From the NCBI GenBank assembly GCA_964584225.1, contig CAZOZG010000003.1, positions 14,915-58,574 of the forward strand: a DNA stretch of 43,660 bases. Reading direction: 5' to 3'. The stretch's first letter is position 1; each line of letters opens with the position of its first letter. This document shows, piece after piece, positions 6,059-35,594 of the stretch. The stretch comes from an uncultured Candidatus Saccharibacteria bacterium. Its GTDB lineage: Bacteria > Patescibacteriota > Minisyncoccia > Phycocordibacterales > UBA2100. Position numbers and translations under genes: made by a program. The notes under the pieces were generated by a model. It was not told the origin of the DNA. It was given only the letters and a program-made list of their open reading frames with translations, and did no database searches.

Positions 6059-6192
6059 CTACTTCTGAATGTATGGGAGCACCCCACATGTCGGATCGCT
6101 ACTGCGATCCACACGCAGGGCCCGCCTCGCGATCCCACGTGCCGACGCACGTGGGCCCCTCGCTCCGGCCGTTTCTGCCTCTCATCCAAAAA
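6059..6192 (-). repeat. Gene-3'-end-associated structured element, copy A (behind rpsR)
   Basis: Inverted copy of the rpsR end (6171-6192), core GGCCGGAG-hairpin-GAGGCGGG-hairpin, recoded direct copy GVLPYIQK* (6085-6059). Confidence 0.8.
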
Positions 6193-6390
6193 TTATTTTT
6201 GGATATAGGGCAGAAGCCCCATGAAGCGTGCGCGTTTGATTGCTGCTTCTACAGAGCGCTGCTGCTTTGCCGTAAGGCCCGTGCGCTTCCTCGAAAGCGT
6301 GCGCCCGTGCGGATTCATGAATTGCTTCAAGAGGTCAACGTCTTTGTAATCGACGTACTGAATATCGTTTTGTGTGAGAATGTTTGCCAT
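6193..6390 (-). CDS. rpsR: 30S ribosomal protein bS18
   Basis: VDYKDVDLLKQF...RKRTGLTAKQQR...AIKRARFMGLLPY. Confidence 0.97.
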   Translation of the reverse strand: MANILTQNDIQYVDYKDVDLLKQFMNPHGRTLSRKRTGLTAKQQRSVEAAIKRARFMGLLPYIQK

Positions 6391-6393
6391 AGA

Positions 6394-6846
6394 CTAAAAC
6401 GGAATGTCGTCAGGATTAATATCGTCTTTCGGGTAATCGATGCCCGCACCGCCTCCGCCCGATGACTCTTCGGGGGGCGCAGCGTCATCAGATGAACGAC
6501 GTCCACCACCTCCGCCGCTCTTCGGCCCAAATTGCACGCGATCAGCGACGACTTCCGTGCGGTATTTCTTTTCGCCACTCCCTTTGTCTTCCCAGCTTCG
6601 CGTCTGCATGCGACCTTCGACAAACACAGAACTTCCCTTCTTGAGATACTGCGCGACGGTGTCTGCCTGGCGGCCGAAGACGACGACATTGTGAAAGTCT
6701 GTTTGCTCCTGCTTTTTGCCATCGCGGTCTCGGTAGACGCGATTCGTCGCGACTGAGAAATTGCACACGTTCATGCCGCTCGGAAGCGCGCGAAGCTCCG
6801 GATCACGCGTCAGATTACCAAACAGCATTGCTTTGTTGATGTACAT
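6394..6846 (-). CDS. ssb: Single-stranded DNA-binding protein
   Basis: GNLTRDPELR, EGRMQTRSW, C-terminal DDIPF. Confidence 0.98.
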   Translation of the reverse strand: MYINKAMLFGNLTRDPELRALPSGMNVCNFSVATNRVYRDRDGKKQEQTDFHNVVVFGRQADTVAQYLKKGSSVFVEGRMQTRSWEDKGSGEKKYRTEVVADRVQFGPKSGGGGGRRSSDDAAPPEESSGGGGAGIDYPKDDINPDDIPF

Positions 6847-6849
6847 ATA

Positions 6850-7365
6850 TTAGTTGACGGTGATGTCTTGGAGTGCTTTGTCGAGATCTTCCTCAGAGAC
6901 AGGCGCTGCAGCCTCTTCTGCTCGGCGCGGCGTCGACTTAATCACATCCGTGCGCTTCACTTCGCGTAGTGTCGGAGCCTTAATCTTGGCACGAGTATCT
7001 TCACGCACGGTGCGAAAGATGATAAAGCGCAAAATCGTTGCGTCTGCCTTCAAAGTTTCTTCAAGCGCAGCGACAGATGACGTGGCTGCTTCAAATTTGA
7101 TCCATCCAAAATAGCCTCGATCAAACTCAACCGTGCGATCACCCTCTTTGCCACTCATGTCATATGCGAGCTTCGTGAGCGCAGGCGCACCTTCAGCAAT
7201 AAATGAACCGCCGGCTTTCTCAATCGCCGCGCGGATGGTACCGACATGCTTTTCCAAATCTTCCTCCTTGATGGATGGTGAGATCGTATATCCGACCTCG
7301 TAGATGCGAAGCGTCGCCTCTTCGGCGCCGTCTTCGACCTTCACTGCGTCCTTGTTTTCAGCCAT
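6850..7365 (-). CDS. rpsF: 30S ribosomal protein bS6 with N- and C-terminal extensions
   Basis: RIYEVGYTISP, KLAYDM, GYFGWIKF, ILRFIIF; rpsF-ssb-rpsR synteny. Confidence 0.9.
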   Translation of the reverse strand: MAENKDAVKVEDGAEEATLRIYEVGYTISPSIKEEDLEKHVGTIRAAIEKAGGSFIAEGAPALTKLAYDMSGKEGDRTVEFDRGYFGWIKFEAATSSVAALEETLKADATILRFIIFRTVREDTRAKIKAPTLREVKRTDVIKSTPRRAEEAAAPVSEEDLDKALQDITVN

Positions 7366-7410
7366 GTAGCGGGCACTGTAACACGCGCTCTTTCGAGGAG
7401 CAAGAAGAAA

Positions 7411-7444
7411 GAGCCCCGAAGCGGCAGTCGCCGCTTCGGGGCTC
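7411..7444 (-). terminator. Rho-independent terminator after the aminotransferase
   Basis: 15-bp perfect stem GAGCCCCGAAGCGGC/GCCGCTTCGGGGCTC followed by TTTCTTCTT on the minus strand. Confidence 0.75.
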
Positions 7445-7451
7445 ACATGCA

Positions 7452-8711
7452 TCACCAGGGATGCTTATAACGGTACGAGAGTTCGGCCGATACTGCGTAC
7501 ACTTCCGTCCCGTGTTTGAGCGTATCTTCGGGTTGAAACGTGAACGGAATTCGATTGTGATTGCGCATCGGATTCTTCCGATACGGATAGGCAGAGTCGT
7601 AATCGGTGAGGATCACGCCTGCATCTTTGCAAAGCTTCTGCGCATGCTCTGCGCAGTTCTCGGCAAGCATCACGGAGACGAAATATCCGCCCTCGATCTT
7701 GCTCCATTTCGCGATCGGCGAATTACCCAGACGACTTGAGAGCACGTTTTCAACGACGGCGAGTTTCGGTCGCAAGATCGTTGCGTGACGAGCCATGTGC
7801 CGCCGCAGCGTTGGCATGTTGCGAAGAAAGCGGATGTGGCGAAGCTGATTGAGTTTCTCAGACCCAATCGTTCGCTTCTCGAGACTTCGGCCAAACCACT
7901 CCAAGTTTTTTGGCGAGCTCGCGATGAACGCAAGCGCGCCGCCCGGATGCGTCACCTTCGAAAGTGAGCCGAAGATAAAGATCCGGTCGCTCGTCCCCGC
8001 TTCACGGGCGTAACGCATGATATCGGGCGCCTTGCGGACTACCGACGTAAGTCCGTGAACCGCATAGGCGTTGTCCCACATCACGACGAAACCGGGACAC
8101 GCGGTTTTCATCGTCGCCAGCTCCTTGGCTACGGCCTCGCTGAGGATGGCGCCGGTCGGGTTCCAGTACAGAGGAACACACCAGATGCCGACATAGGATG
8201 GATCTTTCACGAGTTCGCGGACGATGGCCATGTCGGGCCCATCCTTCAGAAGTGGCACCGGCGTCATCTCGACGTCCAAGTCTTCACACACGCCGAAATG
8301 CCGATCGTAGCCCGGGACCGGACAGATGAACTTGGGCTTCATGCCGGGCGCTTTCCAGCCCGCAAGACCCTTGCGAAGTCCGAGACCGATAACGTTGTGC
8401 ATCAACATCAAACTCGAGTTGCCGATGACAGCTGTCTCCTCGTATTTCGTCCCGAGATAGCGGGCCGCGAAAACCCGCGCCGCCGGCAAACCGAACAACA
8501 GATCGACACCGCTGTAGTTGCGACAATCGATGATGGTGCCGTCTTTCGCCTCAGCGTACTTTGCCTTGATGTTGAACATTCGATCCGAAAGATCGAGCTG
8601 CTCGCTGCACGGGTTGCCCCGTTTCATGTCGACGTTGATTTTCTTGTCGGCGAGCCCGCGATAGCGAGCCCACAGACGGTCCATGTATGGACCTTTTTCC
8701 GCTGGAATCAT
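7452..8711 (-). CDS. PLP-dependent aminotransferase, actinobacterial aspartate aminotransferase (AspT/AspB)-like
   Basis: MKRGNPCSEQLDLS, CPVPGYDRHF, WCVPLYWNPTG, WDNAYAVH, GSLSKVTHPG (PLP lysine), NQLRHIRF. Confidence 0.88.
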   Translation of the reverse strand: MIPAEKGPYMDRLWARYRGLADKKINVDMKRGNPCSEQLDLSDRMFNIKAKYAEAKDGTIIDCRNYSGVDLLFGLPAARVFAARYLGTKYEETAVIGNSSLMLMHNVIGLGLRKGLAGWKAPGMKPKFICPVPGYDRHFGVCEDLDVEMTPVPLLKDGPDMAIVRELVKDPSYVGIWCVPLYWNPTGAILSEAVAKELATMKTACPGFVVMWDNAYAVHGLTSVVRKAPDIMRYAREAGTSDRIFIFGSLSKVTHPGGALAFIASSPKNLEWFGRSLEKRTIGSEKLNQLRHIRFLRNMPTLRRHMARHATILRPKLAVVENVLSSRLGNSPIAKWSKIEGGYFVSVMLAENCAEHAQKLCKDAGVILTDYDSAYPYRKNPMRNHNRIPFTFQPEDTLKHGTEVYAVSAELSYRYKHPW

Positions 8712-8776
8712 TCTCTACTCCCCTTTTCTGTGCCGTTGATGACACTCTTTTTTTAAAGTAACCATATCTGAGCACA

Positions 8777-9589
8777 CTATGCAACGTGGAAGACGCGCTG
8801 GGCATTTGCGGTGAGTTGCGACGCGACTTTCTCGAGATTCTCGCCTCGTATCTCCGCGATTCTTCGGACCACCTCAATAACATACGCGGGCTCGTTGCGT
8901 TTGCCACGATGCGGCACCGGGGAAACATATGGCGCGTCGGTTTCCGTGAGAATCATGTCGAGCGGGGCATTTTTGACGACCTCGTCATAATCATGCGTGA
9001 AGGTCAGCACGCCTGTGAACGAGAGCGTGAACCCGAGATCAAGAAATTGCTTCGCAATATTCCAATCGCCCGCAAAAAAATGGACGTCGCCTTGGACTTT
9101 CGCGTGCGCTTTGACGAGCGCGATCGCATCGTCATACGCATTGCGAATGTGAAGCATCAGTGGCTTTTGTAATTTGTTTGCAAGCTCGATGTGTTCGACA
9201 AACGCATTCGCTTGTACATCTTTTGTACTTTCATCGGCGCGATAGTAATCGAGTCCGCACTCGCCGATGGCGATGACACGTGGATTTTTGCCGAGCGACT
9301 CGTACGCGGCTTCGGAGAAGAGCTCGCCGCGTGAAGTGAATTCTTTTCCGCCCTCTCCCAACTCTTTCTGATCGTGATACGACTTCGATGTGTGTATCGG
9401 ATGCAATCCGATAGTCGCATAGACATGCTCGTATTTCTCGGCGAGCGCAACTGCGGCACGTGAGGTATCAATCTGCGTCCCGACGCAATTCATCGCGACG
9501 CCGACGGCTTTCGCTCTCTGAATCGTCGCTTCACGATCTGGGTCGAAAGCGACAAAATTCACGTGGGTGTGTGCATCAAAGTACTTCAT
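8777..9589 (-). CDS. tatD: TatD family nuclease
   Basis: DAHTH, IGLHP, AIGECGLDY, LHIR, HFF, ETDAPY. Confidence 0.96.
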   Translation of the reverse strand: MKYFDAHTHVNFVAFDPDREATIQRAKAVGVAMNCVGTQIDTSRAAVALAEKYEHVYATIGLHPIHTSKSYHDQKELGEGGKEFTSRGELFSEAAYESLGKNPRVIAIGECGLDYYRADESTKDVQANAFVEHIELANKLQKPLMLHIRNAYDDAIALVKAHAKVQGDVHFFAGDWNIAKQFLDLGFTLSFTGVLTFTHDYDEVVKNAPLDMILTETDAPYVSPVPHRGKRNEPAYVIEVVRRIAEIRGENLEKVASQLTANAQRVFHVA

Positions 9590-10020
9590 GTGTCGTGCTG
9601 TACCGCGTCGAGCCAGAAGTGATGAATCGCACTTGGTATACCGAGCGACGACAACTGCTGTCCGACGGTTTCAGCTTCAACACACAGCACGGTCGGCTTC
9701 GACGGATCGGGCGCGTCAAGAAATTGCTGCCATGTCGGATCGATGATGAGTGACTCATTGCCGATTGTGAGTCGCACGAATTGATGCAGCGCAAAACCTG
9801 GCTGTTCAAAGCGTAACACGTGCGCCGCATCACCGTAGACACCAGAAAGATGCCGTTGCACGACCTCACTCACTTGCTCACACACGCCCGAGTGATACAC
9901 CTCTTCAATTGGCATATCGCGTGCTTCTGCGACCTCTTGATACGCTTTCGTTGCAATTTCTTCGACTGTCTTTTGCACCGCTTCGCGCAAGGTCGGCTGA
10001 CCTTTCAACTTTTCCGGCAT
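9586..10020 (-). CDS. Hypothetical protein with a transglutaminase/papain-like Cys-His-Asp pattern
   Basis: GVCEQVS ... HQFV ... IIDPTWQQF; coupled to metG and tatD. Confidence 0.55.
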   Translation of the reverse strand: MPEKLKGQPTLREAVQKTVEEIATKAYQEVAEARDMPIEEVYHSGVCEQVSEVVQRHLSGVYGDAAHVLRFEQPGFALHQFVRLTIGNESLIIDPTWQQFLDAPDPSKPTVLCVEAETVGQQLSSLGIPSAIHHFWLDAVQHDT

Positions 10021-10021
10021 A

Positions 10022-11449
10022 CTACTCCTTGCGCGGGAACAGATTCGCCGGTTTTTTGTTTGCGAGAATCGCAGATTCTATTTGTTTGCTTGTCGCGGGC
10101 ATTATAGGCCGCAGAAGCCATGCAATCTTGTAGAGTTGCATTTTCATTTCTGCAATTATTTCCGCCCCTTTCTGATGATCTTCTTTAATAATGACGAACG
10201 GTTTTTTATCTGTAAGATCCTTGTCCAACTCTGCGATGAGCTTCCACACATAATCGAGGGCATCGTTGAACTGGTAGTTTGCTAAAGATTCGCCGTACTC
10301 TTTTGGCAACGGAGCGGCTTGAAGAACTGCTATCGCATGAACGTTAGCTTCGGCAAGTTTCAATATGCGCGCGACGAGATTTCCCAAACCATTCGCGAGG
10401 TCAGCATTGTACGCATCTTTGAAGCGCTCCATCGTAAAATCAGAATCATCAAATGGCGAAATGTGCCGCGCGAGGAAATAACGCAGTGCGTCGACGCCGT
10501 ACTCTTCGACAATCGTCATCGGATCGATCACATTGCCGATGCTTTTCGACATTTTTTGGCCGCCGGAAGTGATGAAGCCGTGATAGAGAATCTGTTTTGT
10601 GTTTGGGAGTCCTGCGCTCATAAGCATCGCTTGCCACATGACGGATTGGAAACGAACCTGATCTTTGCCGGCAAGCTGCAGCGTGTCGCCATCGACCCAG
10701 AATTTTTTGAAATTCTCTTCTTCGTCTTCCGGCCACCCCAGCGTCGAGATGTAGTTCGTGAGTGCGTCGAACCACACATACAGTACCTGCGAATCATCAC
10801 CCGGCACTGGCACGCCCCACGGCATTTTCTCTTTGACGCGTGAGATGCTGAAATCCTCGAGTCCGGCTTTGACGAAATTGATTGCTTCCTGCCTGCGCCA
10901 TTCGGGGACGATTACTCCCTCTTTGCCAAGGTACTCAAGCAATCTGTCTTGGTACGCACTCAGTTTAAAGAAATAATTTTCTTCCTCGATTTCGACGAGA
11001 TCCATCGTGGGGTGATTCGGACAGCGGCCGTTGACAAGGTCGCTCTCACGGACAAAAGCTTCGTCGCCAACACAATAGAGTCCCTTGTATTTCCGCTTCT
11101 CGATGTCTTTCGCGCAACGACGCCACATATCTTGTGCCGCAGCTTTGTGATGCGGGTCAGTGGTGCGAATGAAGTGCAAACCGTCGGAAAGGCCGAGCTT
11201 TTCCTTGAGCGTGCGAAACTTCGCCGCGTACTCGTCTGCGTACGCCTGAGGCTCTTTCTTTTCTTCGCGCGCTTTCTGATAAATTTTTAAGCCGTGTTCA
11301 TCGGTGCCGGTGTTGAAGAAAACATCGTCACCCTGAAGCGCGTGATAGCGAGCAATAATGTCGGCCTGCACAAGCTCAAGCGCAAAGCCGATATGTGGGT
11401 CGGCATTCACGTACGGGAGCGTCGTTGTGAGATAGAAGGATTTCGCCAT
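10022..11449 (-). CDS. metG: Methionine-tRNA ligase, short form without the C-terminal tRNA-binding domain
   Basis: YVNADPHIGF, GTDEHG, YVWFDAL, KMSKS. Confidence 0.96.
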   Translation of the reverse strand: MAKSFYLTTTLPYVNADPHIGFALELVQADIIARYHALQGDDVFFNTGTDEHGLKIYQKAREEKKEPQAYADEYAAKFRTLKEKLGLSDGLHFIRTTDPHHKAAAQDMWRRCAKDIEKRKYKGLYCVGDEAFVRESDLVNGRCPNHPTMDLVEIEEENYFFKLSAYQDRLLEYLGKEGVIVPEWRRQEAINFVKAGLEDFSISRVKEKMPWGVPVPGDDSQVLYVWFDALTNYISTLGWPEDEEENFKKFWVDGDTLQLAGKDQVRFQSVMWQAMLMSAGLPNTKQILYHGFITSGGQKMSKSIGNVIDPMTIVEEYGVDALRYFLARHISPFDDSDFTMERFKDAYNADLANGLGNLVARILKLAEANVHAIAVLQAAPLPKEYGESLANYQFNDALDYVWKLIAELDKDLTDKKPFVIIKEDHQKGAEIIAEMKMQLYKIAWLLRPIMPATSKQIESAILANKKPANLFPRKE

Positions 11450-11454
11450 TGTGC

Positions 11455-12513
11455 TCACGCGTCGCGCGTTTTCCTGCGACTCGCTTCGAGATCGGTGACT
11501 AATTCTTGAATCGTTGCCGCTGCTGGCACCGAGAGCAATATGCCCAAAAATCCTGCGAGCTCGAAACCAACGATAAGGGCGAGAATCACGAGAAGCGGAG
11601 GTACGCCGACGACGCGTGTGACGACCAGAGGATAAATCAGGTGATTTTCAAATTGTTGGAAAATCACATAGAGCGCGATCACGAGGAGGCCGATTCCGAG
11701 GCCGCCGTCGACAAAACCGATCATGACCGCAGGCACTGCCGAAAGTGTCGGTCCAAAGACAGGAATAATTTCAAATACCGCCGCGATGACGGCAAGAATC
11801 AGCGCGTGTTTGATGCCGAGGACCGTCAGGCCGAGATAGACCAAAATACCCATGATAAAGCCAAGGAGGAGTTGTCCTTGCATCCAGAGGCCAATCTTCG
11901 TGCGCGAGCGCTTCCAGAGGCTCAACACATAATCGACGTATTCGCTCGGTGTGACGACTCGCAAAAAACCATCGACACCTGTCTCGATCACCGCGAAGTA
12001 GAATGAGAAGACGACAATCAGGATGAACGAAAAGAAACCGCCGAAGATTGCTGAGACAGCGGTAAACGCGTTGTCGAAAATGCCGCCGACATCGAGCGAG
12101 GTGCGGACGCTCTGCATAATGTCGTTGGTGGAGATCATCGAGGGCGGCGTGATCCCGAGGATGTGGGCATACTGATCAAACGCACCAAAACTACTGAACG
12201 CGTTGATGTAATTCGGGAGAGCGGAGACGAACGTCGCGAGATCTTCGAAGACTGATGGGAGGAAGAAATAGAAAATCCCAAAGAGAACGATGAAGACCGT
12301 GAGGTAGACAATCACGACCGCAGCAATACGTGGTACTTTGTGCCGGTGCAAGCGCGCGACACCTGGCTCGATTGCAGAGGCGACGACGACTGCCGTGAGA
12401 ACGTCGAGCACGAGATCACGAAGCGTAAAGACAAGCCACGCGACGATAAGAAGGAGGATGGTTTTGATGATGGTTCCCGTCGTGATGGAAAAGGTAATCG
12501 GCCGATCCTGCAT
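11455..12513 (-). CDS. AI-2E (PerM) family transporter
   Basis: WMQGQLLL, EIIPVFGP, QQFENHLIYP. Confidence 0.93.
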   Translation of the reverse strand: MQDRPITFSITTGTIIKTILLLIVAWLVFTLRDLVLDVLTAVVVASAIEPGVARLHRHKVPRIAAVVIVYLTVFIVLFGIFYFFLPSVFEDLATFVSALPNYINAFSSFGAFDQYAHILGITPPSMISTNDIMQSVRTSLDVGGIFDNAFTAVSAIFGGFFSFILIVVFSFYFAVIETGVDGFLRVVTPSEYVDYVLSLWKRSRTKIGLWMQGQLLLGFIMGILVYLGLTVLGIKHALILAVIAAVFEIIPVFGPTLSAVPAVMIGFVDGGLGIGLLVIALYVIFQQFENHLIYPLVVTRVVGVPPLLVILALIVGFELAGFLGILLSVPAAATIQELVTDLEASRRKTRDA

Positions 12514-12552
12514 GAGTCGAATCGTACCATATGAGAGGTAAAATTCAGCTTT

Positions 12553-13954: not shown

Positions 13955-15940
13955 TCAGCGTACCACAGTCGCGTTTGTCGAGGTAAATCCTGGGTCCGGC
14001 GTGACCGGGACGCCCTCAGACGAACGCGATACGCGCGACAAATCTGATGTCACATTCGTGAGGTGCTTCGTGATTGTCTGGCCCGTCGCTGCGTCTGTGC
14101 CGGTGAGAGAAATATCTTGGAGGAGTACTGGCTCCTGTCCAATCTGCGAGGTCGATGGCGTAAAGCCGATCGCGACGGCCGCCTGGCGCGCTTGCGTGCC
14201 GTTGACACCGACGCCAGGATCAATGTCGCCAACATCCCACGTAAATGTGCTGTTGTTGAGACTGAAAGAAATATTTTCAGAGCGTGGGCTATAGATACCC
14301 ATCCAGCGGACGTACGGTGGCAAGACTGCCGTCAATTTGGCGTTATTGATTTTGTTTGTGGTGTTTGTGACGGTGAAGACCGCGCCATACGTCGTCTCAG
14401 TGCCTGCTTCCGGCGGCAATGGACCGACACTCCCAAATGGATTGGCGTAGTAGAGCCCTTGCGCCGTCAGGACAAGATCACTCGCGAGTCCGACGCGTTG
14501 CGAGATAGTCGATTGGAGATTTTCCGGTACGCCGGATTCTGAAAGGCGCTTCCCCGCCGCGTTGACGGAAATCGTGAGATACGGATCGCGCATAGTCTGT
14601 AGGACGTCATTTCCCGGAACCTCGAACGAAAATGAGACAACGCCCTTTGCACCCGCAGGAATATTTGCGAGATCCCCGTTACTCGTCGTTTTGTCCCACA
14701 ACACCGTACTATCGGTCGAGCGATAAAAGCCATTGATGGCCTGCACGGTCGAGCCGTCAAATTGCAAACCAGAAAGACGCGCGACGATGACAGCATCGGT
14801 AATGGGTGTCGTGAGATTGTTTTGCCAGTTGATGTAGACGTTCACCCGACCGCCCGGCGTGACGACTGCGGTACTCCCACTGACACCATTGACGCTCAAA
14901 GCGAGCCCGAGGAATTGCTGAGAGATCTGAAGCGAAAATGCCGTATTCGAAAGCGGCACGTCGACTGTCTGCGAGTCCGGACTATTGCGCGTCCCCGCAG
15001 TGAAATGAAAGACGCGCTCGTCGCCTTCTTGTCCGGTGAGCGTGCCGCGAATCGTGATCTCGCGCCGCTGCCCAGGCGCAAAGTCACCGAGTTCCCATAC
15101 ACTCCCGTGAGTCGGTGCCGGGTTAGAGGTGACAGAACTGAAGCCAAACGGAAGTCCGACGGAAAGTAAGACGTCGCGCACCGGTGCATTTGCATTTGAA
15201 GCGACCGTTACCGTGAGCTCAACCGGCTGACCCGAGACGGTCTGTGTATTGCCGTCGACGGTCACCGTAATCGGAGCTGACCCGATCGTGGTTGCATAAT
15301 CAGAATCTGCGACAAAGATTGCATTTGACCCGGTGACACGATACTCAAGCTCAGCTTTGACATCGGCCTGCGTACCAGTGTCTCCAGCGAACACGGCTTT
15401 CAGTGTCCCTTGTCGGCGACCGCCGGCCTCGATTGAACCAAGCGAGATGCGTTGCGTCGTCAGATCGGTCGTGAGATCGCTCGCGGATCGCGTGCCTGGC
15501 GGATACGTAATGACGAGATCGGCGAGATCGAGCGGGACGGCGTTTCGATTGGTGACAACCACTTGGAGCTCAGTGGGCTCGCCGCCGGAAACCTGCGGCG
15601 GCCCGACGATTGCGATATCAATATTGGCAGCCGACGCGGGGGCGGCACCGCTGCCGAACGTAAAGTAGTAGAAAAAATAGCCCCCAGCAGCGAGGAAAAA
15701 AAGTATCGAGAGCCCGAAGACGATACGCACGCCAGTGCGCGCCGCTGAGATACCGCGCGGCGGTGCGATGACCTTGGGCGCACCAACCTCCGGGCGCTTC
15801 CAGTCGTCTCCGACGGTTGAGTGTCCTTGCTCAAGCGCGCGACGCGGCTTGTCTTTGAGTTGTTCCGAGAGCGAGCGCGAGTACATCGCGCGTCGCAAAC
15901 GCTCTATTTCATCACGCTCATGGTCGGACGAAGGCTCCAT
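13955..15940 (-). CDS. Membrane-anchored extracellular protein with tandem Ig-like (DUF11-like) domains
   Basis: Single TM near the N-terminus; repeated beta-rich units (WELGDFAPG, WDVGDIDPG); GPLPP motif. Confidence 0.7.
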   Translation of the reverse strand: MEPSSDHERDEIERLRRAMYSRSLSEQLKDKPRRALEQGHSTVGDDWKRPEVGAPKVIAPPRGISAARTGVRIVFGLSILFFLAAGGYFFYYFTFGSGAAPASAANIDIAIVGPPQVSGGEPTELQVVVTNRNAVPLDLADLVITYPPGTRSASDLTTDLTTQRISLGSIEAGGRRQGTLKAVFAGDTGTQADVKAELEYRVTGSNAIFVADSDYATTIGSAPITVTVDGNTQTVSGQPVELTVTVASNANAPVRDVLLSVGLPFGFSSVTSNPAPTHGSVWELGDFAPGQRREITIRGTLTGQEGDERVFHFTAGTRNSPDSQTVDVPLSNTAFSLQISQQFLGLALSVNGVSGSTAVVTPGGRVNVYINWQNNLTTPITDAVIVARLSGLQFDGSTVQAINGFYRSTDSTVLWDKTTSNGDLANIPAGAKGVVSFSFEVPGNDVLQTMRDPYLTISVNAAGKRLSESGVPENLQSTISQRVGLASDLVLTAQGLYYANPFGSVGPLPPEAGTETTYGAVFTVTNTTNKINNAKLTAVLPPYVRWMGIYSPRSENISFSLNNSTFTWDVGDIDPGVGVNGTQARQAAVAIGFTPSTSQIGQEPVLLQDISLTGTDAATGQTITKHLTNVTSDLSRVSRSSEGVPVTPDPGFTSTNATVVR

Positions 15941-27741: not shown

Positions 27742-28479
27742 TCAACTGCCTTTCGCGCGCGCCCAGTTTTGCGAATAGGATTTTTTGAATACGACAATCC
27801 AGATGCCGTTCAGAGTCCATTGCCAGAGTAGTTTCGGCCAGCCCATTACATGCGCGCGTCGGCCACTGAAGTAGACGCGGAGCGTCGAATCCAAAAGTGT
27901 GCGACCGACTTTTGAAAGTCGCATAAAAAGATCCGCGTCTTCAGATGCGATCAGGTGTTCATTGATACCGCCGACCTGTTTATACGCAGTCGTGCGCACG
28001 ATCATGCACTTGCCGTGTGTCAGGCCCCAATGCAAGACGTTGTTGGCAAAACGAAAGTACGCGTCGAAACACGAAAGCACGAATCGATCGGCGCGCGTTT
28101 CTGCCGTCGGCTCGACGCGCATGCTGACGGTCATTGCGACAAGTTTTTGATTTGATTCGAAATGCTGGATGATTGCCGGGAAAAAAGTGTGTGGGTCGCG
28201 AAGCCACACATCGCTATCGAGGAACATCAGGATATCGCCGCGCGCAATCGCGGCGCCGCGATTGCGCGCGGCGCCGATCGTCTTCGGTTGCTGCCCCGCA
28301 TAGCGAACGACAAAGTCGGCGACTCCCGCCGCGACGTCGGCCGTCTTATCCGTGCTCCCGTCATCCGAAAGAATTATTTCCACTTCTACTCCAGCTGCCC
28401 GCGCGCCTTCGCGCAGCCGCCTCAGCGTTTCCCCGATCACGCCCTCTTCGTTGTGCGCCGGAATCACTATAGAAATCAC
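27742..28479 (-). CDS. Family 2 glycosyltransferase
   Basis: ISIVIPAHNEE, DDGSTD, ARNRGA, FLDSD, GGINE..SED; GTG start 6 nt after TATGCT. Confidence 0.92.
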   Translation of the reverse strand: MISIVIPAHNEEGVIGETLRRLREGARAAGVEVEIILSDDGSTDKTADVAAGVADFVVRYAGQQPKTIGAARNRGAAIARGDILMFLDSDVWLRDPHTFFPAIIQHFESNQKLVAMTVSMRVEPTAETRADRFVLSCFDAYFRFANNVLHWGLTHGKCMIVRTTAYKQVGGINEHLIASEDADLFMRLSKVGRTLLDSTLRVYFSGRRAHVMGWPKLLWQWTLNGIWIVVFKKSYSQNWARAKGS

Positions 28480-29325: not shown

Positions 29326-29329
29326 GGAA

Positions 29330-29356
29330 AACGACGCACGAAGTTTGTGCGTCGTT
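29330..29356. terminator. Hairpin between convergent genes
   Basis: AACGACGCACGA-AGT-TTGTGCGTCGTT. Confidence 0.55.
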
Positions 29357-29379
29357 GTTGGATCAGCAGTGCGGGCACG

Positions 29380-29628: not shown

Positions 29629-29693
29629 ATCTTCTTCCCCAATTTAGGTAGACCTGCCCTAGTTTGACCAATCATCCACAGAGAAGTCAAGCG

Positions 29694-30197: not shown

Positions 30198-30201
30198 ACG
30201 A

Positions 30202-30909
30202 TTACCGGACGTCTTTGTATTCGTGGGTAAACGGCCGGTGGAAGAGAACGGGCCAGAGGTAGTTGAGCATGTAGCGGAGATTCGTGCGGAAAATTCCTTC
30301 CCTCTCAAAGCGGCGTGCAGACGCGCGAGCGTAGAAATTCATCCGAAAGAGTGTCTTCCCTACCTTGCTCAGGCGGCGCGCAAGATCGGTGTCTTCGCCG
30401 TAAAATTTTATAGATTTGTCGAAGCCGCCGATTTTCTCGAGTGCGTCGCGCTTGACGACAAAATTGCCGCCCAAAATCATGTAGCCGACCAGCCAATACG
30501 TGACCGGCGCAAACGCCCACAGCGCATTTAAAATCCACAAACGCCAAAAGGAGCTACCGAAGTAGCGGCGCGGCCCGCTCAAAGACACGATGTCGGGCCG
30601 CGCCGCGAAATACATCTCGGCTTTTTCAATCCAATCGTTGGTAATCAACGTATCTGCATCGATGTACGCGAGGTAGTCACTGTGCGAACTTTCAAATCCG
30701 CGCTGCCGCGCGGCAGGCAATCCTTTCTCTGATTCAAAGACAATGCGCGCACCATGCGCGGTCGCGATTCCTGACGTCTTGTCTGTCGATGCGTTATCAA
30801 CCACAATAATCTCTTTGAATTTTCCTCGCGAACATTTCTGTGCGACATCGAGTGTCTCGGCAATCACCGATTCTTCATTGTGCGCACAAATGATGAGCGT
30901 GATATCCAT
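30202..30909 (-). CDS. Family 2 glycosyltransferase
   Basis: ITLIICAHNEE, VDNASTD, YIDAD, GGFD...YGEDTD, SARR. Confidence 0.93.
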   Translation of the reverse strand: MDITLIICAHNEESVIAETLDVAQKCSRGKFKEIIVVDNASTDKTSGIATAHGARIVFESEKGLPAARQRGFESSHSDYLAYIDADTLITNDWIEKAEMYFAARPDIVSLSGPRRYFGSSFWRLWILNALWAFAPVTYWLVGYMILGGNFVVKRDALEKIGGFDKSIKFYGEDTDLARRLSKVGKTLFRMNFYARASARRFEREGIFRTNLRYMLNYLWPVLFHRPFTHEYKDVR

Positions 30910-30911
30910 AG

Positions 30912-31253
30912 CTAGTGCATGTGCGCGTCGAGAAGCACGATCGAACGGCGTATTGCCACGAACGCATAACCCCACAAAATCGGAAGCCACAGCGGCATGA
31001 CGCCGAGGAGTGAATTGCGAGCAAACGTCTCGACACCGGTCGCGATGAAAATGTATTCGGAACAAAACAAAACGCAAAAACCGAAGAGGAAAAAAACGAA
31101 GTCGCGTTTGTTGAGGGCAATCGCAAACGCGGTCAAGATGATAAGTCCGTACAATATCGACAAGAGGTAGTCATTCTGCACCAGGGGGATCAGCCCGATC
31201 ATGACAACGACCGGCACGGCTTGGAGCAACAGACGCTGCGCCAGTATGTACAT
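30912..31253 (-). CDS. DUF2878-like membrane protein
   Basis: SEYIFIATG...MPLWLPILWG; TATACT 6 nt before ATG. Confidence 0.65.
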   Translation of the reverse strand: MYILAQRLLLQAVPVVVMIGLIPLVQNDYLLSILYGLIILTAFAIALNKRDFVFFLFGFCVLFCSEYIFIATGVETFARNSLLGVMPLWLPILWGYAFVAIRRSIVLLDAHMH

Positions 31254-31267
31254 ATCGTAAGTATATC

Positions 31268-31435
31268 GGGGCGATCACGTGTCGGGAATCCTGCTCCCCC
31301 GCTTCGCCGGGGCGAAGCTCCTCCGCAGCCGGCCACCCTCGCTTTATACCAATGGCGCTCGGGTTGGCTTCGATTCCCGCACGAACAATCAGTAAAGCTG
31401 AAAACTCCCGCACCAGGCGAGAGTTTTCAGCTTCA
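31268..31435 (-). repeat. Gene-3'-end-associated structured element, copy B (behind tRNA-His; divergent core)
   Basis: Hairpin 31395-31433, inverted T-arm copy 31369-31384, two hairpins, direct copy GATTCCCGAC..GATCGCCC at 31290-31268. Confidence 0.7.
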
Positions 31436-31437
31436 TG

Positions 31438-31510
31438 GGCGATCGTCGGGAATCGAACCCGAATTGAGAGCTCCACAAGCTCCAGTGTTGACCGTTACAC
31501 CACGATCGCC
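31438..31510 (-). tRNA. tRNA-His(GUG)
   Basis: G-1/C73, anticodon loop TTGTGGA, T-arm TCGGG-TTCGATT-CCCGA. Confidence 0.95.
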
Positions 31511-31556
31511 ATCACACACCCACTGTATAGCAAAATTTCGGCTCTAAAGCGAGACT

Positions 31557-32654
31557 TTAGCGCACATCCTGCTCGGTCGGAGTACTCGTCGCAACATCGA
31601 CGATAGAGAACGAAATGCGCCCAATAATCTGCCCATACGACGTGACGACATTCACGCGCCATGCGCCCGCTTCTGGATCTGGTCGCGCACTGTAGCCGCG
31701 GAAGCCGCCGTCCCGGCCGCCCTGGATCGGATACTGGACTGTCTGCAGCGTCACCCACGAGTTGCTCGTCTCATCAAAATGCTGCCATTCATGATAGACC
31801 GTGATCGCAAGGCTACTCGGCGCGAAGATCGCGCTCCACACGTACACTGTCTCACCCGGCGCGTGATGAAAAACAGTATTGTAGCGAAGAAACGATTCGT
31901 ACCATGGCACCGGCTCATATGAGACAAGGTAGCCATCAGCCGACCGTTGCACGCTGTGAAGTACGCCGGCGTCTTTGAGTGCAAGAGGAAGCGGCGGAAT
32001 CGCGCCGGTGAAATACAAAATGTTGAAAACAACATAAATGATCGCGATGGACCGTCCGAGTGCGAAAGCCTGCGTGCGTCGTTCGGGCAAATAGAAGAAG
32101 AGAACGCTCGCGAACACTGCGACAATGACGAGCGCGACTGCTCCGCTCAGAAGAAACATGGATGGACCGATCTGCCCAAACACGACCGGAAAAAAGAAAA
32201 TGAGAAACGAAAAGAGTACTGTAAAGTAAATCGACATCTGGAATGAGAAGCGCCGATAGAAATGCACAAATCGCTCATTGCCGATCAAAAGCAGACCGAC
32301 GGCGACGACAAAAATCCAACTCCACGAATACGCCGCGCTGCGGCTATAGAGTGAAACAAACGCGCTGAAAAGGCCGCCAAAAGCGAACTGCGCCACGACG
32401 GGAACCAGCGGCAACATATTGAGGAACAATTGTTGTCGCAATCGGCCAAGCTCGATGCAATTCAAAAGTATGATGCACGTAGCTGCAGCAACGAGGTAAA
32501 AGAAAAGCAGGGCATTCGACGTCCACAGATCAACGCGGCGCAGAAGAATCAAGTTGTCTGAAATAACGCCCGCGATAAGGCCGATCGGTGAGACGTAGCG
32601 GATGTACCAATCGGCGAGCTCTTCGATGCTCTTAGGGATACGAAATGGTTTCAT
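31557..32654 (-). CDS. Membrane protein with a C-terminal DUF2914-like domain
   Basis: QFAFGGLFSA; C-terminal SAIFAP..L...VYHEW, GGRDGGFRGYS, GAWRVNV. Confidence 0.75.
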   Translation of the reverse strand: MKPFRIPKSIEELADWYIRYVSPIGLIAGVISDNLILLRRVDLWTSNALLFFYLVAAATCIILLNCIELGRLRQQLFLNMLPLVPVVAQFAFGGLFSAFVSLYSRSAAYSWSWIFVVAVGLLLIGNERFVHFYRRFSFQMSIYFTVLFSFLIFFFPVVFGQIGPSMFLLSGAVALVIVAVFASVLFFYLPERRTQAFALGRSIAIIYVVFNILYFTGAIPPLPLALKDAGVLHSVQRSADGYLVSYEPVPWYESFLRYNTVFHHAPGETVYVWSAIFAPSSLAITVYHEWQHFDETSNSWVTLQTVQYPIQGGRDGGFRGYSARPDPEAGAWRVNVVTSYGQIIGRISFSIVDVATSTPTEQDVR

Positions 32655-33211
32655 GCTTTGTACTCAGGCGGTGTCTCGACAATGCCGGCGCGGTGGTTCG
32701 CCAGACGACCGAGCGCATAGAAGAGCGACGAGAGTCTATTCGCGTATGCGCGGCTCGACTCGCTCACCGCGCGTTCGCCACTTTCGTGCAAAGTGACGAG
32801 GCGTCGCTCAGCGCGTCGCGAAATCGCCCGCGCAATGTCGAGTCGCGCAGAAAATTCAGTGCCGCCCGGCACAAGAAACGTCTTTATCTCCGGCAACTCT
32901 TTCTCGATTCCGTTGATGAACGCACTCATCTGCTCGACACTGTCTGGCGGTACGCTTTTCTTTGCGCCGGCAACTTCAGCCTGGATCGTAAATAAATAAT
33001 TTTGTACATCTCTCAAGACGTCTGCACCTGCCTTTCCTTGTACAGAAAAATCATCGGGCGCTGCGACCTTGCACCAGCCGACAACAGTATTGAGCTCGTC
33101 GAGCTGACCAAGACATTCAAAAATTGGCGAGGATTTTGAGACCCGTTGCCCCTGCGCAGAGTCGAAGAGTTTTGTCGTACCGCCATCGCCTTTTCCTGTA
33201 AACAGAGCCAT
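32651..33211 (-). CDS. ATP:cob(I)alamin adenosyltransferase, PduO type
   Basis: LFTGKGDGGTTKL, GQLDELN, FLVPGG, RAISRRAERR, NRLSS. Confidence 0.92.
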   Translation of the reverse strand: MALFTGKGDGGTTKLFDSAQGQRVSKSSPIFECLGQLDELNTVVGWCKVAAPDDFSVQGKAGADVLRDVQNYLFTIQAEVAGAKKSVPPDSVEQMSAFINGIEKELPEIKTFLVPGGTEFSARLDIARAISRRAERRLVTLHESGERAVSESSRAYANRLSSLFYALGRLANHRAGIVETPPEYKA

Positions 33212-33255
33212 GCGTTCATCATATCAAAGTAAAGACCCCGCGAGCTTCTGATGTC

Positions 33256-33483
33256 TCATCGGGGCCATTCTCCTGCACGCTGCACTTGGACTTGTGGAGA
33301 AGAAAGATCAACGTGCAACGTATTCGTAAGCGATCGGTAATCGAGGTACGCGCCCGTAACGAATGCGAGAACGAGCAACGCTCTCAGCAAAGATGCCGAG
33401 ATTCGTCGAACAGGTTTGAAGTAGATTTCAAACGCGAACCACAATGCGACCGCGAAAATGAGACAAAGCAGTGTTGCTGCCAT
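33256..33483 (-). CDS. Small 2-TM hypothetical protein
   Basis: Two hydrophobic segments; TTGACA...TATATA promoter-like sequence upstream. Confidence 0.5.
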   Translation of the reverse strand: MAATLLCLIFAVALWFAFEIYFKPVRRISASLLRALLVLAFVTGAYLDYRSLTNTLHVDLSSPQVQVQRAGEWPR

Positions 33484-33573
33484 CACGTCACCATTTCATT
33501 GTTACAACTCTTTTTTATATACACGATGGATCCTGAGGTGTCAATGAATTTTTGAGAAAATCGCGCAAAAGAA

Positions 33574-33609
33574 AACTCCGTCCGAGCCGAAAGTGGCTTG
33601 GACGGAGTT
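33574..33609 (-). terminator. Rho-independent terminator
   Basis: AACTCCGTCCGAGCC/GGCTTGGACGGAGTT stem with TTCTTTT tail on the minus strand. Confidence 0.65.
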
Positions 33610-33638
33610 CGAACCCTCTTGCGAGCACAGTTAATCGA

Positions 33639-34157
33639 CTACGCCGCGTCTCGAAGATCAGTCGTGTCCGTCACACGTTCGACGGCAAGCGAGTAATACG
33701 GCGTACACGTACGCCTAGCCTCCTCGAACGGCCCACCAGTCAAAAGAATGAACAAGTGGAAAAACGGCGTCGGCCGCGGAAGTTTCCGGTATGCCTTCCA
33801 ACAAAAACCGTCCTTATCAGGCGATATGAATTCGATTTCGAACTCGTTGCCCTGCGTTTCGCCGACCATATGTCTGTGGCTAAACTCGACCGGGCGGACC
33901 CAGGTGTTAGCCAGAGGATGTACGAGACAAGACCGTTCCCCTTCGAGAGTCAGGAGAAGATCGGTACCAGGCAACGTTGCCGAAATCGAGATCCCCAACC
34001 GATCGCACATCGCCGGCGCGAGGATCATCGTTGAACGCCTTAGGCTCGGATCGTGCATTCCCGGTTCGGTCAATGTGAGGGTAATCAGACCCCGCGCTCC
34101 GTCTGTGAAGACGTCGGAGAGAGCCACTTTCTCGATTCGTAACCGCTTCTTAATCAT
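33639..34157 (-). CDS. Hypothetical protein downstream of tRNA-Leu
   Basis: GGAGG SD before ATG 34157; terminator follows. Confidence 0.55.
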   Translation of the reverse strand: MIKKRLRIEKVALSDVFTDGARGLITLTLTEPGMHDPSLRRSTMILAPAMCDRLGISISATLPGTDLLLTLEGERSCLVHPLANTWVRPVEFSHRHMVGETQGNEFEIEFISPDKDGFCWKAYRKLPRPTPFFHLFILLTGGPFEEARRTCTPYYSLAVERVTDTTDLRDAA

Positions 34158-34302
34158 CGTATACCTCCATTTAGAGTGAGCCAGAACATTTCGTCTGGAT
34201 AGATGCGTCAGAAACCTTTTCTCCTCAGCAATGTATAGCAAAAATAATCAAAACGCGCAGCAATCGACTAGACGGGGTTTGATACTATCAAAATGCACCT
34301 TG

Positions 34303-34386
34303 TGCGCAGGGGGAGACTCGAACTCCCATGCCCGTGAGGGCGCTACCACCTCAAGGTAGTACGTCTACCAATTTCGCCACCTGCGC
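34303..34386 (-). tRNA. tRNA-Leu(GAG)
   Basis: Anticodon arm CTACC-TTGAGGT-GGTAG, long variable arm, TTCGAG T-loop. Confidence 0.95.
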
Positions 34387-34398
34387 GTCGCTTCTATA

Positions 34399-34854
34399 TT
34401 ACTCAGTTTTCGCAGAAGCTCCAGCCTCTACTGTTTCGTTCTCTTTGACCGGCGTCTCAGCTGCAGCTTCGAGCTTCCCTTCCGTGGTGACGCTGCCGCC
34501 CATAATGCGTGTGCGGCGCAACTGTCGGCGCGCTTCGCGCGCCACTTTCTCGCGAATGTAGTAGAGCTTCGCACGGCGGACGCGGCTGCGCTTCAAGATT
34601 TCGATTTTGTCTATCATCGGGGAGTAGATCGGAAATACTTTCTCGACACCGACGCCTTGGAGGACATGACGAACGGTGAACGTACCACCAGCTTCTGTGC
34701 CATGCTTCCTGGCAAGAATGAGGCCCTCGAACGCCTGCAGGCGGAATTTACCTTTCTCTTCCTCAATCTTCTGCCACACACGCACCGTGTCGCCCGGCCG
34801 AAGATCGAGATTTTTGCGTGCCGCCATGTCTACTGGCGAAGTTTTTACTGTCAT
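34399..34854 (-). CDS. rplS: 50S ribosomal protein bL19
   Basis: PGDTVRV, RLQAFEG, FTVR, GVGVEK.FP, VRRAKLYYIR. Confidence 0.97.
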   Translation of the reverse strand: MTVKTSPVDMAARKNLDLRPGDTVRVWQKIEEEKGKFRLQAFEGLILARKHGTEAGGTFTVRHVLQGVGVEKVFPIYSPMIDKIEILKRSRVRRAKLYYIREKVAREARRQLRRTRIMGGSVTTEGKLEAAAETPVKENETVEAGASAKTE

Positions 34855-34881
34855 AGTCGGCGCACTATAGCATTCGTTTGG

Positions 34882-35163
34882 TTAGAAGACAATATCGAAT
34901 GATTCAAACGCCGAGCTCGGCTCACGCCACTCGACGGCTGCGTCGGAAACACGTGCGAGAAATGGACCTTTGCGAATATACTCGAGCAACTTCTGCAGCT
35001 TGTCTTCATAGCCCTGCGCGATGATTTCAACGGTGAAATTTGGCAGATTGCGGACACTACCGACGATAGCTAGGTGCCGCGCATGTCGCGCGACGTAGTC
35101 GCGGTACATCACACCCTGCACTTTACCCTTCACGATGCAGCGGATTTCGGCAATGTCATTCAT
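34882..35163 (-). CDS. acyP: Acylphosphatase
   Basis: VKGKVQGVMYR, GSVRNL, GP.LARV. Confidence 0.93.
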   Translation of the reverse strand: MNDIAEIRCIVKGKVQGVMYRDYVARHARHLAIVGSVRNLPNFTVEIIAQGYEDKLQKLLEYIRKGPFLARVSDAAVEWREPSSAFESFDIVF

Positions 35164-35187
35164 GAGCGACATTATACGTAAATGTTT

Positions 35188-35324
35188 CTTGTGGTCACGG
35201 ATAATTTTCTTGCCGTCGCAAGAAAATTTCCTCGACCCCGCCGACCGTTTCGCCTACCGGCGAAACATGTCTCCGGCCCGCACAAGTGCACGAAAAAGCA
35301 AAGCAGTTTGCTTTTTCAGCCTTG
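35188..35324 (-). repeat. Gene-3'-end-associated structured element, copy C (behind tRNA-Val)
   Basis: CTTGTGCG inverted copy, GGCCGGAG-hairpin-GGCGGGGTCG-hairpin-CGTGACCACAAG. Confidence 0.8.
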
Positions 35325-35396
35325 TGCGCGGTGAGGGATTTGAACCCCCGACCCTCCCCGTGTAAAGGGGTTGCTCTACCACTGAGCTAACCGCGC
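35325..35396 (-). tRNA. tRNA-Val(UAC)
   Basis: Anticodon loop TTTACAC; GGGGG-TTCAAAT-CCCTC T-arm. Confidence 0.95.
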
Positions 35397-35430
35397 AAGC
35401 TACCTCAACATATCACAATCGAAGTATTCA

Positions 35431-35522
35431 TGTGGTCACGCATAAATCGCTGCTGCGATTTTGCGCGACCCCGCCTCGCGCCGTCGCGCTCCGGCCGGCA
35501 CAAACTGCGCTTCGCTCGTTTG
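35431..35522 (-). repeat. Gene-3'-end-associated structured element, copy D (behind tRNA-Arg)
   Basis: GTTTGTGCC inverted copy, GGCCGGAG-hairpin-GAGGCGGGGTCG-hairpin-CGTGACCACA. Confidence 0.8.
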
Positions 35523-35594
35523 TGCCCCCGCGAGGAATCGAACCTCGATTGACGGCTTAGAAGTCCGCAGTTCTATCCATTGAACTACAGGGGC
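35523..35594 (-). tRNA. tRNA-Arg(UCU)
   Basis: Anticodon loop CTTCTAA; CGAGG-TTCGATT-CCTCG T-arm. Confidence 0.93.

Follow-up and report, generated by a model that had tools for sequence, protein, structure and literature searches.

A family of small structured elements behind gene 3' ends in Patescibacteria, with arms matched to the adjoining gene

Several kinds of small structured elements are known to lodge behind or inside bacterial genes, each with its own rule for choosing a site. IS608 contains an internal guide that base-pairs both with the target beside it and with the 3' end of the element itself; IS200/IS605 guides are 4-5 nucleotides (nt) long, and these elements insert 3' of a fixed target of 4-5 nt and do not duplicate it. 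REP and REPIN sequences consist of imperfect palindromes of 20-40 nt that have a conserved tetranucleotide at the 5' end, and two of them flank the RAYT gene; integron attC and CTXphi attP each depend on one dedicated recombinase (IntI or XerCD) and one partner site. Integrative elements that enter gene 3' ends and bring a replacement end include phages and islands at tRNA and tmRNA genes as well as phage 21 and e14 in icd. Rickettsia palindromic elements (RPE), also small structured repeats, can lie within coding genes without disrupting the reading frame, and the tyrT 3' repeats of E. coli (RtT RNA) are units behind a tRNA gene, each with a copy of the tRNA 3' end. Here we describe a family of small structured elements in a 43,660-nt stretch of DNA (the window: positions 14,915 to 58,574 of contig CAZOZG010000003.1, assembly GCA_964584225.1) from an uncultured Candidatus Saccharibacteria bacterium. 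The nearest described kinds are IS200/IS605 miniatures, REP sequences and gene-end-targeting integrative elements, and the family is without those of their linked-enzyme and fixed-target features that were tested. Its new feature is a constant scaffold whose arms are matched in both senses to gene ends, at no fewer than 14 sites in a 1-Mb genome.

With IS200/IS605 miniatures, PATEs and REP/REPIN sequences the family shares the form of small, strand-specific hairpin elements that have no gene of their own and are scattered behind genes. Unlike in IS200/IS605, its matched segments span 8-27 nt and differ at each site, and its repeats range from 3 to ~45 nt; unlike both IS200/IS605 and REP, its core is a two-domain junction and not a simple palindrome. 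As proposed below, it would resemble attC and attP in functioning within one folded strand, with conserved bulges and an internal complement that gives a double-stranded site, but every copy has a different partner sequence, and we saw only Xer-like matches and no integron integrase. Like gene-end integrative elements, it has repeats reaching from the T-loop to the end of the tRNA (17-20 nt at tRNA-Leu, Ser, Ile and Glu), displaced copies that differ at synonymous sites, and a cargo allele at tRNA-Glu; unlike them, it is ~100-170 nt long, lacks an integrase, occupies at least 14 sites per 1-Mb genome and contains an internal antisense copy. RtT likewise has repeat units behind tRNA genes that contain a copy of the tRNA 3' end, but the family matches nothing in Rfam, is built on another conserved core, has an antisense arm and follows many different genes. 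Spread of small repeats through small genomes, with one in-frame case, is also a trait of RPE and of the GC clusters of yeast mitochondria; neither has target-matched arms or a preference for the exact ends of tRNA and ribosomal-protein genes. For the GC clusters, the comparison draws on PMC4478555.

Gene-end-matched arms around a covarying core

The window is part of contig C3 of genome G000 (979,881 bp, 48 contigs); other G numbers denote related genomes, and L numbers denote loci drawn from them. A first-pass annotation had placed four non-coding elements on the minus strand, behind rpsR, tRNA-His, tRNA-Val and tRNA-Arg. All four are present at the coordinates it had given (Table 1), and at each the parts follow the order it had described: gene end, optional hairpin, antisense segment, core and gene-end copy. 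To assess the arms, we compared the longest perfect complement, or the longest exact run, with 2000 shuffles per locus. The longest perfect complement between the pre-core segment and the gene end was 9 nt at tRNA-Arg (reached in 2 shuffles), 8 nt at tRNA-Val (22 shuffles), 9 nt at rpsR (3 shuffles) and 11 nt at tRNA-His (none), bearing out at all four loci the proposal that each antisense segment matches its own upstream gene end (complements of 8-11 nt). In every case the gene end pairs with its antisense arm in a single hairpin, whose tip is either the stop codon (rpsR, where it lies in the loop, and rplL) or a terminator-like hairpin, and homologous cores at different genes carry arms matched to each gene. 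In the form that we call type A, the antisense arm passes over the acceptor strand. Cores are often separated from their gene by a canonical terminator; the Arg copy sits between two tRNA genes without a terminator.

The direct copy of the gene end is more variable. Its longest exact run is 10 nt at tRNA-His (1/2000 shuffles), 7 nt at tRNA-Arg (56/2000), 6 nt at tRNA-Val (330/2000) and 4 nt at rpsR. The direct copies proposed for the four loci thus hold for tRNA-His, which is individually significant, and for rpsR, where the 27-nt copy preserves codons, but the short CACA (Arg) and CACAAG (Val) are not significant alone. In the rpsR copy, 18 of 27 bases are identical to the gene end, eight of the nine differences fall at third codon positions, and the last codons and the stop codon are kept. 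Across the family, we compared the 200 nt upstream with the 60 nt downstream: the two share an exact direct repeat of 10 nt or more in 28 of 84 elements with full flanks, versus 11 of 497 mismatched flank pairs. Elsewhere in G000, gene-end copies directly behind the core are exact over 20 nt at tRNA-Leu and 19 nt at tRNA-Ser; in relatives they reach 17-18 nt at tRNA-Glu and tRNA-Ile and ~45 nt, terminator included, at tRNA-Val(gac). Elements of the long-hairpin form, among them Val, Arg and many more, keep of the gene end only ACA or slightly more, which by itself is not significant; in type-B copies the repeat is only 3-6 nt. Overall, repeats range from 3 to ~45 nt, with different targets at each site.

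The rpsR site could be followed through nine filled loci. The downstream copy retains the last codons in these, and the stop codon in 9/9; differences between gene end and copy are distributed 4:3:41 over codon positions 1, 2 and 3, and variable columns among the copies themselves 2:2:9. The rpsI gene-end copy shows a like pattern. Upstream gene ends at the filled rpsR sites are uniform over the stretch paired with the antisense arm and change together with it. The downstream copies are like the diverse gene ends found at empty sites, and several of the differences between end and copy are wobble-compatible with the arm. Two readings fit: the rpsR copy may be the native gene end displaced by a replacement-end integrative element, or gene end, arm and copy may be a co-evolving triple in which change is confined to synonymous sites. 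At tRNA-Glu, where the outer copy is exact and the inner one decayed, selection on the copy itself is favoured.

The core is a 60-90-nt module of two helical domains, P2, which contains a G(G/C)A/GA internal loop, and P3, in which a G.U pair is conserved and an A is bulged. Among 14 copies in G000, 97.6% of pair cells are standard pairs versus 70.7% in shuffles, with both-side changes in 20 of 23 pairs, and partners slid out of register pair in only 31-51%; among 39 copies from other genomes, 98.3% are paired versus 75.5% in shuffles, with both-side changes in 19 of 23 pairs. Both alignments were fitted to the model and are hence biased towards it, but the margin is large nonetheless. The three-base helix that closes P2, for instance, occurs as GCC/GGC, GGC/GCC, GAC/GTC, CGC/GCG and TGC/GCA. 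The covariation in both sets agrees with the first-pass annotation, which had noted stems that vary in sequence yet keep pairing. At one position of P3, 34 of 37 copies have a G.U pair, where the opposite strand would have a mismatch; this makes the fold specific to the sense strand. The core fold is thus real and strand-specific.

In the window, the rpsR, Val and Arg copies share a string of parts, GCC, GGA, a hairpin, GA, GGC, GG and a long hairpin, the last of which begins with GGTCG or a covarying equivalent, contains a bulged A and an AGCA-like loop, and ends in GTGACC. Junction motifs recur (GAAA ahead of P2, GACC ahead of the gene-end copy), and linkers such as AGCA are conserved though non-templated. 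The hairpin loops are of the kinds GACG, GTCG, CTTG and AGCA, none of GNRA or UUCG type. GCGAAGC, a DNA mini-hairpin motif by the definition given in PMC13037366, occurs at hairpin tips in 12 of 90 elements versus ~1 expected, and its reverse complement in 3 of 90.

The clearest case of one scaffold with re-addressed arms is the copy behind tRNA-His. It had been described as a family member that keeps only a stem motif. Its architecture is indeed that of the others, with an antisense arm, GAA, a GCC...GGC domain, CGG, a hairpin and the tRNA-His end copy, but its core is a distinct second subtype, to which our first covariance model (R1, see below) gave no match at E<=1. A search with the His locus found this core again in another species, behind tRNA-Asp(gtc) on contig C2 of G019, ~80% identical and with nearly all bases the same from GAAGCC to GGGGGAG; there, both the antisense arm and the copy behind the core match tRNA-Asp.

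Distribution and mobility of the family

A relaxed-pattern search and then R1, built from five copies, found further members in G000, and a second covariance model (R2) was built from 14 copies. The family proved far larger than the four loci from which the first-pass annotation had suggested building such a model. R1 and R2 recover the Arg, Val and rpsR copies and together support 14 copies in G000 (R2 alone gives 13 matches), the further ones lying behind tRNA-Leu(caa), tRNA-Ser(cga), tRNA-Lys(ttt), tRNA-Val(gac), tRNA-Ile(tat) and 5S rRNA, on C15 and on C34, with three shorter variants closed by perfect inverted repeats (C5, C17, C12). For relatives, we drew 41 genomes (G000, 24 other members of its genus and 16 from other families of the order); these draws are samples, and many of the assemblies are fragmented. 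R2 matched 36 of the 41, namely 23 of the 24 other genus members and 12 of the 16 from other families besides G000, with 0-33 copies per genome, a range spanned within the one genus. Six of 150 other genomes drawn evenly from the wider phylum had R2 matches, some of up to 80 bits in other classes. In metagenomes, a 20-base pattern scan matched at least 120 stretches; the 80 loci examined with the model gave at least 77 R2 matches. Among 39 copies in relatives, 22 have a same-strand tRNA gene within 300 nt upstream, and the others lie behind 5S rRNA, rplL or elsewhere; the neighbourhoods of rpsI and rplS recur near elements.

The first-pass annotation recognised no named family, and Rfam 15 agreed: at gathering score the window gave four tRNA matches only, and at E<=1 nothing overlapped any element in seven loci holding eight elements (ribozymes, RtT, HEARO and IS605-orfB included). 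Likewise, we found no description of such an element in literature listings and abstracts.

Sites that are filled in one genome and empty in another, which the first-pass annotation had proposed to look for, were found at rpsR and tRNA-His. At rpsR the element is present in 8 of the 27 nearest relatives in addition to G000, the others having only a terminator. Of 19 tRNA-His loci in other species of the genus draw, L176 carries an element with an 18-nt repeat, L185 is scar-like, and the remainder have none. At L185 (G011:C2), a T-arm and acceptor 3' half of another allele follow 13 nt behind tRNA-His with no core between, which looks like the scar of a gene-end replacement. In a relative's contig from run X2, ~88% alike, 181 other letters replace the 527 nt downstream of tRNA-His (window 30909-31437), so the His element is not common to that relative. 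Assembled contigs of the sequencing runs contained no filled/empty pair for the Val or Arg sites.

Copies also occur inside one another and inside a gene. The form that we call type C, abundant in G013, begins with GTGAGA and its own first hairpin, followed by GCAAG and then the core. In G013, three type-C copies interrupt long-form copies exactly at the boundary of P2 and P3, and in the same genome a type-C insertion (L074) is in frame within a 631-codon open reading frame (ORF), with 453 open codons before it and 146 after; orthologues in eight other genus members do not have it, and tblastn of the L074 protein against G000 gave no orthologue. Other type-C copies stand at the starts of genes, where 30-60 nt of the start region are duplicated, and tandem arrays of units occur among the relatives' copies. 

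At L042 (G018:C6), a glycoside-hydrolase-like gene has 32 nt of its start duplicated, and a type-C copy follows the duplicate; the frame opening in the duplicate crosses the element and stops 10 nt ahead of the real start codon, an arrangement that suggests translational coupling. Across loci L055 to L074 in G013, the type-C first hairpin and P2 are near-identical, in a P2 form absent from the other genomes examined, and the inner stem of P3 comes in three covarying forms common to other genomes; this patchwork suggests modular exchange or partial gene conversion.

One long allele was found in G000 (C15:13320-15478), where two ORFs stand behind tRNA-Glu(ctc). After them come a degenerate copy of a tRNA end, a terminator, an antisense arm and a core, and last, 2.1 kb from the gene, an exact 17-nt copy of the tRNA-Glu end. 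From their sequence motifs, the ORFs encode a putative aminoglycoside-phosphotransferase-like kinase (334 aa) and a histidine-phosphatase-like protein (271 aa); they seem AT-richer than their surroundings, and the region looks like an integration hot spot. Of the longer alleles with cargo that had been anticipated, this ~2-kb one exists. The proposal of a non-autonomous site-specific mobile element fared well in part: the scaffold with matched arms is directly visible and mobility is supported, but the searches described below did not identify a partner enzyme. On this evidence the family is probably a mobile structured repeat of some kind.

Candidate enzymes and rival readings

No integrase, Y1, reverse transcriptase, IS110 or TnpB match lies on contig C3, in keeping with the earlier remark that the window contains no recombinase. 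We searched five genomes for PF01548, PF07282, PF00589 and PF00078, and all 41 genomes for PF01797. PF01548 (IS110-type DEDD recombinase) matched in none of the five, although control genomes give matches, and PF07282 (TnpB) in none above cut-off, with one weak 20.8-bit match in G013. IS110 bridge RNA (or seekRNA) and TnpB omega RNA also combine a constant structured scaffold with target-matching segments; beyond the missing domains, the family differs in that the same target stretch is matched in both senses and not as adjacent halves. PF00078 (reverse transcriptase) is present in G000 (C16:17911-18525 and C28:8756-9373, 92 and 78 bits) and in the element-free genus member G002; its absence from the high-copy genomes G013, G012 and G022 sets the family apart from retroelements such as group II introns, retrons and diversity-generating retroelements. 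The presence pattern across the five genomes therefore supports none of IS110, TnpB or reverse transcriptase as partner. Each of the five, G002 included, has one Xer-like tyrosine recombinase; the PF00589 matches in G000 are on C14 and C10, neither adjoining a copy.

The Y1 HUH domain (PF01797) is present in 32 of the 41 genomes: 30 have both element and Y1, six the element only, two Y1 only and three neither, G002 being without a Y1 gene. As these genomes are related to one another, the counts are not independent and do not amount to a test of association. G000 has three Y1 HUH genes of 207-225 codons with the HUH motif, at C22:1761-2384(+), C19:15034-15711(+) and C10:9137-9808(-). As in IS200 and REP-RAYT systems, these Y1 genes come with hairpin repeats of their own. 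Each is flanked by inverted hairpins and, unlike in REP/REPIN, not by the family core; the hairpin arms of C19 and C10 recur 8-33 times in G000, and a repeat scan gave nothing for C22. They look like REP/RAYT-like systems in a 1-Mb genome. One apparent proximity of element and Y1, on G001:C1, was set aside: the element there lies behind rpsI, followed by grpE and, further on, an unrelated RAYT-like gene.

Our preference, a tentative one that we hold without much confidence, is for a non-autonomous, base-pair-targeted mobile element that folds as a single strand and is moved in trans, by a mechanism that we infer. The element would act as a folded single strand, most likely single-stranded DNA. 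Its insertion site would be defined by pairing of the antisense arm with the gene end and its copy, comparable to the pairing of guide and cleavage-site sequences in IS200/IS605 over 8-20 nt instead of 4-5 nt. An enzyme encoded elsewhere would then move the module in trans, and a Y1 HUH enzyme of IS200/RAYT type is the only plausible candidate that we saw. Several observations weigh against this reading. The matched segments (8-27 nt) far exceed IS200/IS605 guides. The six element-bearing genomes without Y1 include G012 (23 copies) and G029 (11 copies, 99% completeness), and two element-free genomes do carry Y1. In contrast to PATEs, where the tnpA/Y1 gene has the same end structures, none of six Y1 loci is flanked by the core (best 15 bits, E 0.08), and co-occurrence with Y1 is imperfect. 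None of 150 ORFs (of 180 listed) within 1.5 kb of ~60 metagenomic elements encodes a recombinase, transposase or reverse transcriptase; these neighbours are housekeeping genes, L19 five times among them. Nearly all targets are genes of the translation apparatus (tRNA, 5S and 23S rRNA, rpsR, rpsI, rplL, rplS), and some lineages stay at one site across families, as at rplL in G011, G035 and G036. Finally, gene-end copies stop exactly at the stop codon or the tRNA end and, in ribosomal-protein genes, differ mostly at third codon positions, which fits a displaced native end at least as well.

The choice of targets and the fidelity to rplL would be natural for a cis-acting RNA in the 3' trailers of translation-apparatus genes that pairs with the upstream RNA end, serving 3'-end processing, exonuclease protection or co-regulation, with spread to new genes secondary. 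We consider this somewhat unlikely. The strong strand-specific covariation, with its conserved G.U pair and bulges, speaks for it, as does the fact that the module always stands in sense behind its gene; so do the Arg copy, between two tRNA genes with no terminator, and the type-A antisense arm, which skips the acceptor strand as if sparing tRNA folding. An RNA of this kind is nonetheless hard to reconcile with the canonical terminator that often separates gene from core, with 0-33 copies within a genus and orthologous sites that are empty in most relatives, and with copies nested in other copies or in frame in a coding gene, and it leaves a second full gene-end copy without reason. We favour DNA over RNA because of the terminators, the nested and in-frame copies, the enrichment of the GCGAAGC mini-hairpin and the loops, which are not RNA-typical. 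Among sequencing runs, the stretch was found only in those of DNA from a rock metagenome; in the RNA runs, 4-6% of its words occur, which we take to be conserved tRNA parts.

Two further readings keep mobility and change its mechanism. In a Campbell-type miniature integrative element, which we regard as unlikely, the element would carry a replacement gene end and push the native end downstream. A resident tyrosine recombinase, or a guided one, would act where the segment begins on its 5' side (in tRNAs, the T-loop), and in a single-stranded circle the antisense arm would provide the second strand of the element's own site, as in CTXphi attP and integron attC. Direct repeats that span T-loop to tRNA end or reach the stop codon are what this predicts, and the rpsR loci, with uniform upstream ends that pair with the arm and downstream copies like the native diversity at empty sites, fit it too, as does L185 with its second-allele 3' half 13 nt on. 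The Xer-like recombinase found in each of five genomes could serve, but element-free G002 has it as well, one unguided recombinase cannot recognise at least 14 unrelated sites, and none of the ~60 elements has a linked integrase. Serial insertion would moreover predict the reverse of what is seen at tRNA-Glu, where the outermost copy is exact (17/17) and the inner one degenerate, and type-B repeats are just 3-6 nt. It is also conceivable, and in our view very unlikely, that no dedicated machinery is involved: stable hairpins would stall replication, fold-back synthesis and template switching would copy the core elsewhere while yielding an inverted and a direct copy of local sequence, and homologous recombination with DNA uptake would spread the alleles. 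Arm and gene end do always form one continuous hairpin, often extending a terminator palindrome, the duplications vary from 4 to ~60 nt with spacers at times, no linked enzyme was found, and elements persist in genomes without Y1. Against such an origin, core boundaries and junction motifs (GAAA, GACC) are too regular and linkers such as AGCA are conserved though non-templated, while a fold conserved across an order argues for selection on structure.

The favoured single-strand element has a stronger version, which we find rather doubtful: the antisense arm may be a true guide in a programmable insertion system, in which a change of arm changes the site. A ~60-nt scaffold, an 8-20-nt target complement and a copy of the target would then direct insertion to an exact gene end, and the enzyme would be a HUH transposase with far longer guides than known, or one of a new kind. 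If true, such a guide-programmed system would be categorically new. Base-pair targeting in itself, if true, would make the family a very small natural site-specific insertion system with a readable and changeable address, and would widen the known use of guides by single-strand transposons. If the elements act as RNA, they would instead give the tRNA, rRNA and ribosomal-protein genes of Patescibacteria a 3' element in common, in a group for which almost no regulatory RNAs are known. Bacteria of this group have genomes of ~1 Mb with little spare DNA, and yet up to 33 copies stand at the exact ends of their most conserved genes. The family accounts for many of the 'extra' tRNA 3' fragments in assemblies, its covariance model can serve as a marker for genome dynamics in uncultured lineages, and dozens of natural pairs of filled and empty sites are available for work on the mechanism.

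Mapped features and minor observations

Coordinates of the parts at the four window loci are collected in Table 1, where T denotes the target segment, that is, the stretch of gene end matched by the arms.

Table 1. Parts of the four elements in the window (window positions; bit scores from covariance models R1 and R2).
Feature	Position	Strand	Description
T(rpsR), target segment	6193..6219	-	last 8 sense codons and stop codon of rpsR; pairs with antisense arm
Antisense arm, rpsR	6173..6192	-	9-nt and 7-nt runs complementary to T(rpsR), GAGA between
Core, rpsR	6082..6169	-	P2 with extended hairpin, then P3; R1 27.2 bits, R2 44 bits
rpsR gene-end copy	6059..6085	-	overlaps last 4 nt of core; codon pattern and stop codon retained
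T(His)	31437..31454	-	3' part of tRNA-His T-loop, T-stem, acceptor 3' strand
Terminator-like hairpin, His	31395..31434	-	between tRNA-His and antisense arm
Antisense arm, His	31372..31384	-	11-nt perfect complement, 0/2000 shuffles
Core, His	31291..31368	-	second subtype; GCC/GGC closing pairs; P3 with GGAGGA/GGGGGA internal loop
tRNA-His 3'-end copy	31268..31290	-	4-nt insertion; 10-nt exact run, 1/2000 shuffles
T(Val)	35321..35328	-	final tRNA-Val bases and trailer bases; partner of antisense arm
Terminator-like hairpin, Val	35292..35317	-	A-rich and T-rich arms; caps T:antisense helix
Antisense arm, Val	35279..35286	-	8-nt perfect complement, 22/2000 shuffles
Core, Val	35193..35277	-	long-P2, long-P3 form; R1 34.2 bits, R2 41.4 bits
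ACAAG after Val core	35188..35192	-	short repeat of tRNA trailer; alone not significant
T(Arg)	35519..35526	-	final tRNA-Arg bases and trailer bases
Loop between T(Arg) and antisense arm	35505..35518	-	contains mini-hairpin motif GCGAAGC
Antisense arm, Arg	35497..35504	-	9-nt complement, 2/2000 shuffles
Core, Arg	35434..35495	-	canonical 62-nt form; R1 81.6 bits, R2 83.7 bits
ACA after Arg core	35431..35433	-	trinucleotide recurring behind most long-form copies

The first-pass annotation had also linked three of the copies by a shared octamer, GGCCGGAG. It does occur at 6163, 35271 and 35489, but at a frequency expected by chance: the window has three occurrences versus 1.14 expected, at least three were reached in 8 of 100 shuffles, and there are 29 copies genome-wide. 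We therefore dropped the count as evidence for the family; as the octamer is not significant alone, the evidence rests on structure and context.

A match at G000:C7:11388 and weak model matches on C21, on C7 and at window 28236-28329 fall in coding sequence and were dropped; the last, on the minus strand (22.1 bits), lies inside a glycosyltransferase-like coding region and was judged to be due to chance. Among viral contigs there were three pattern matches, of which only L164 carries elements (L164:2850-3319, from IMGVR_UViG_3300033463_005745, classed viral), in the form of tandem variants with tRNA-like 3'-end copies; no phage link emerged from these matches. Self-cleaving ribozymes, group I or II introns, bulge-helix-bulge introns and ribosomal bypass were considered from sequence only, and no family matched. 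In the 23S rRNA gene of G000 (C25), L008:2276-2432 gave a weak match to group I introns (24.3 bits against a gathering score of 50, E 0.009).

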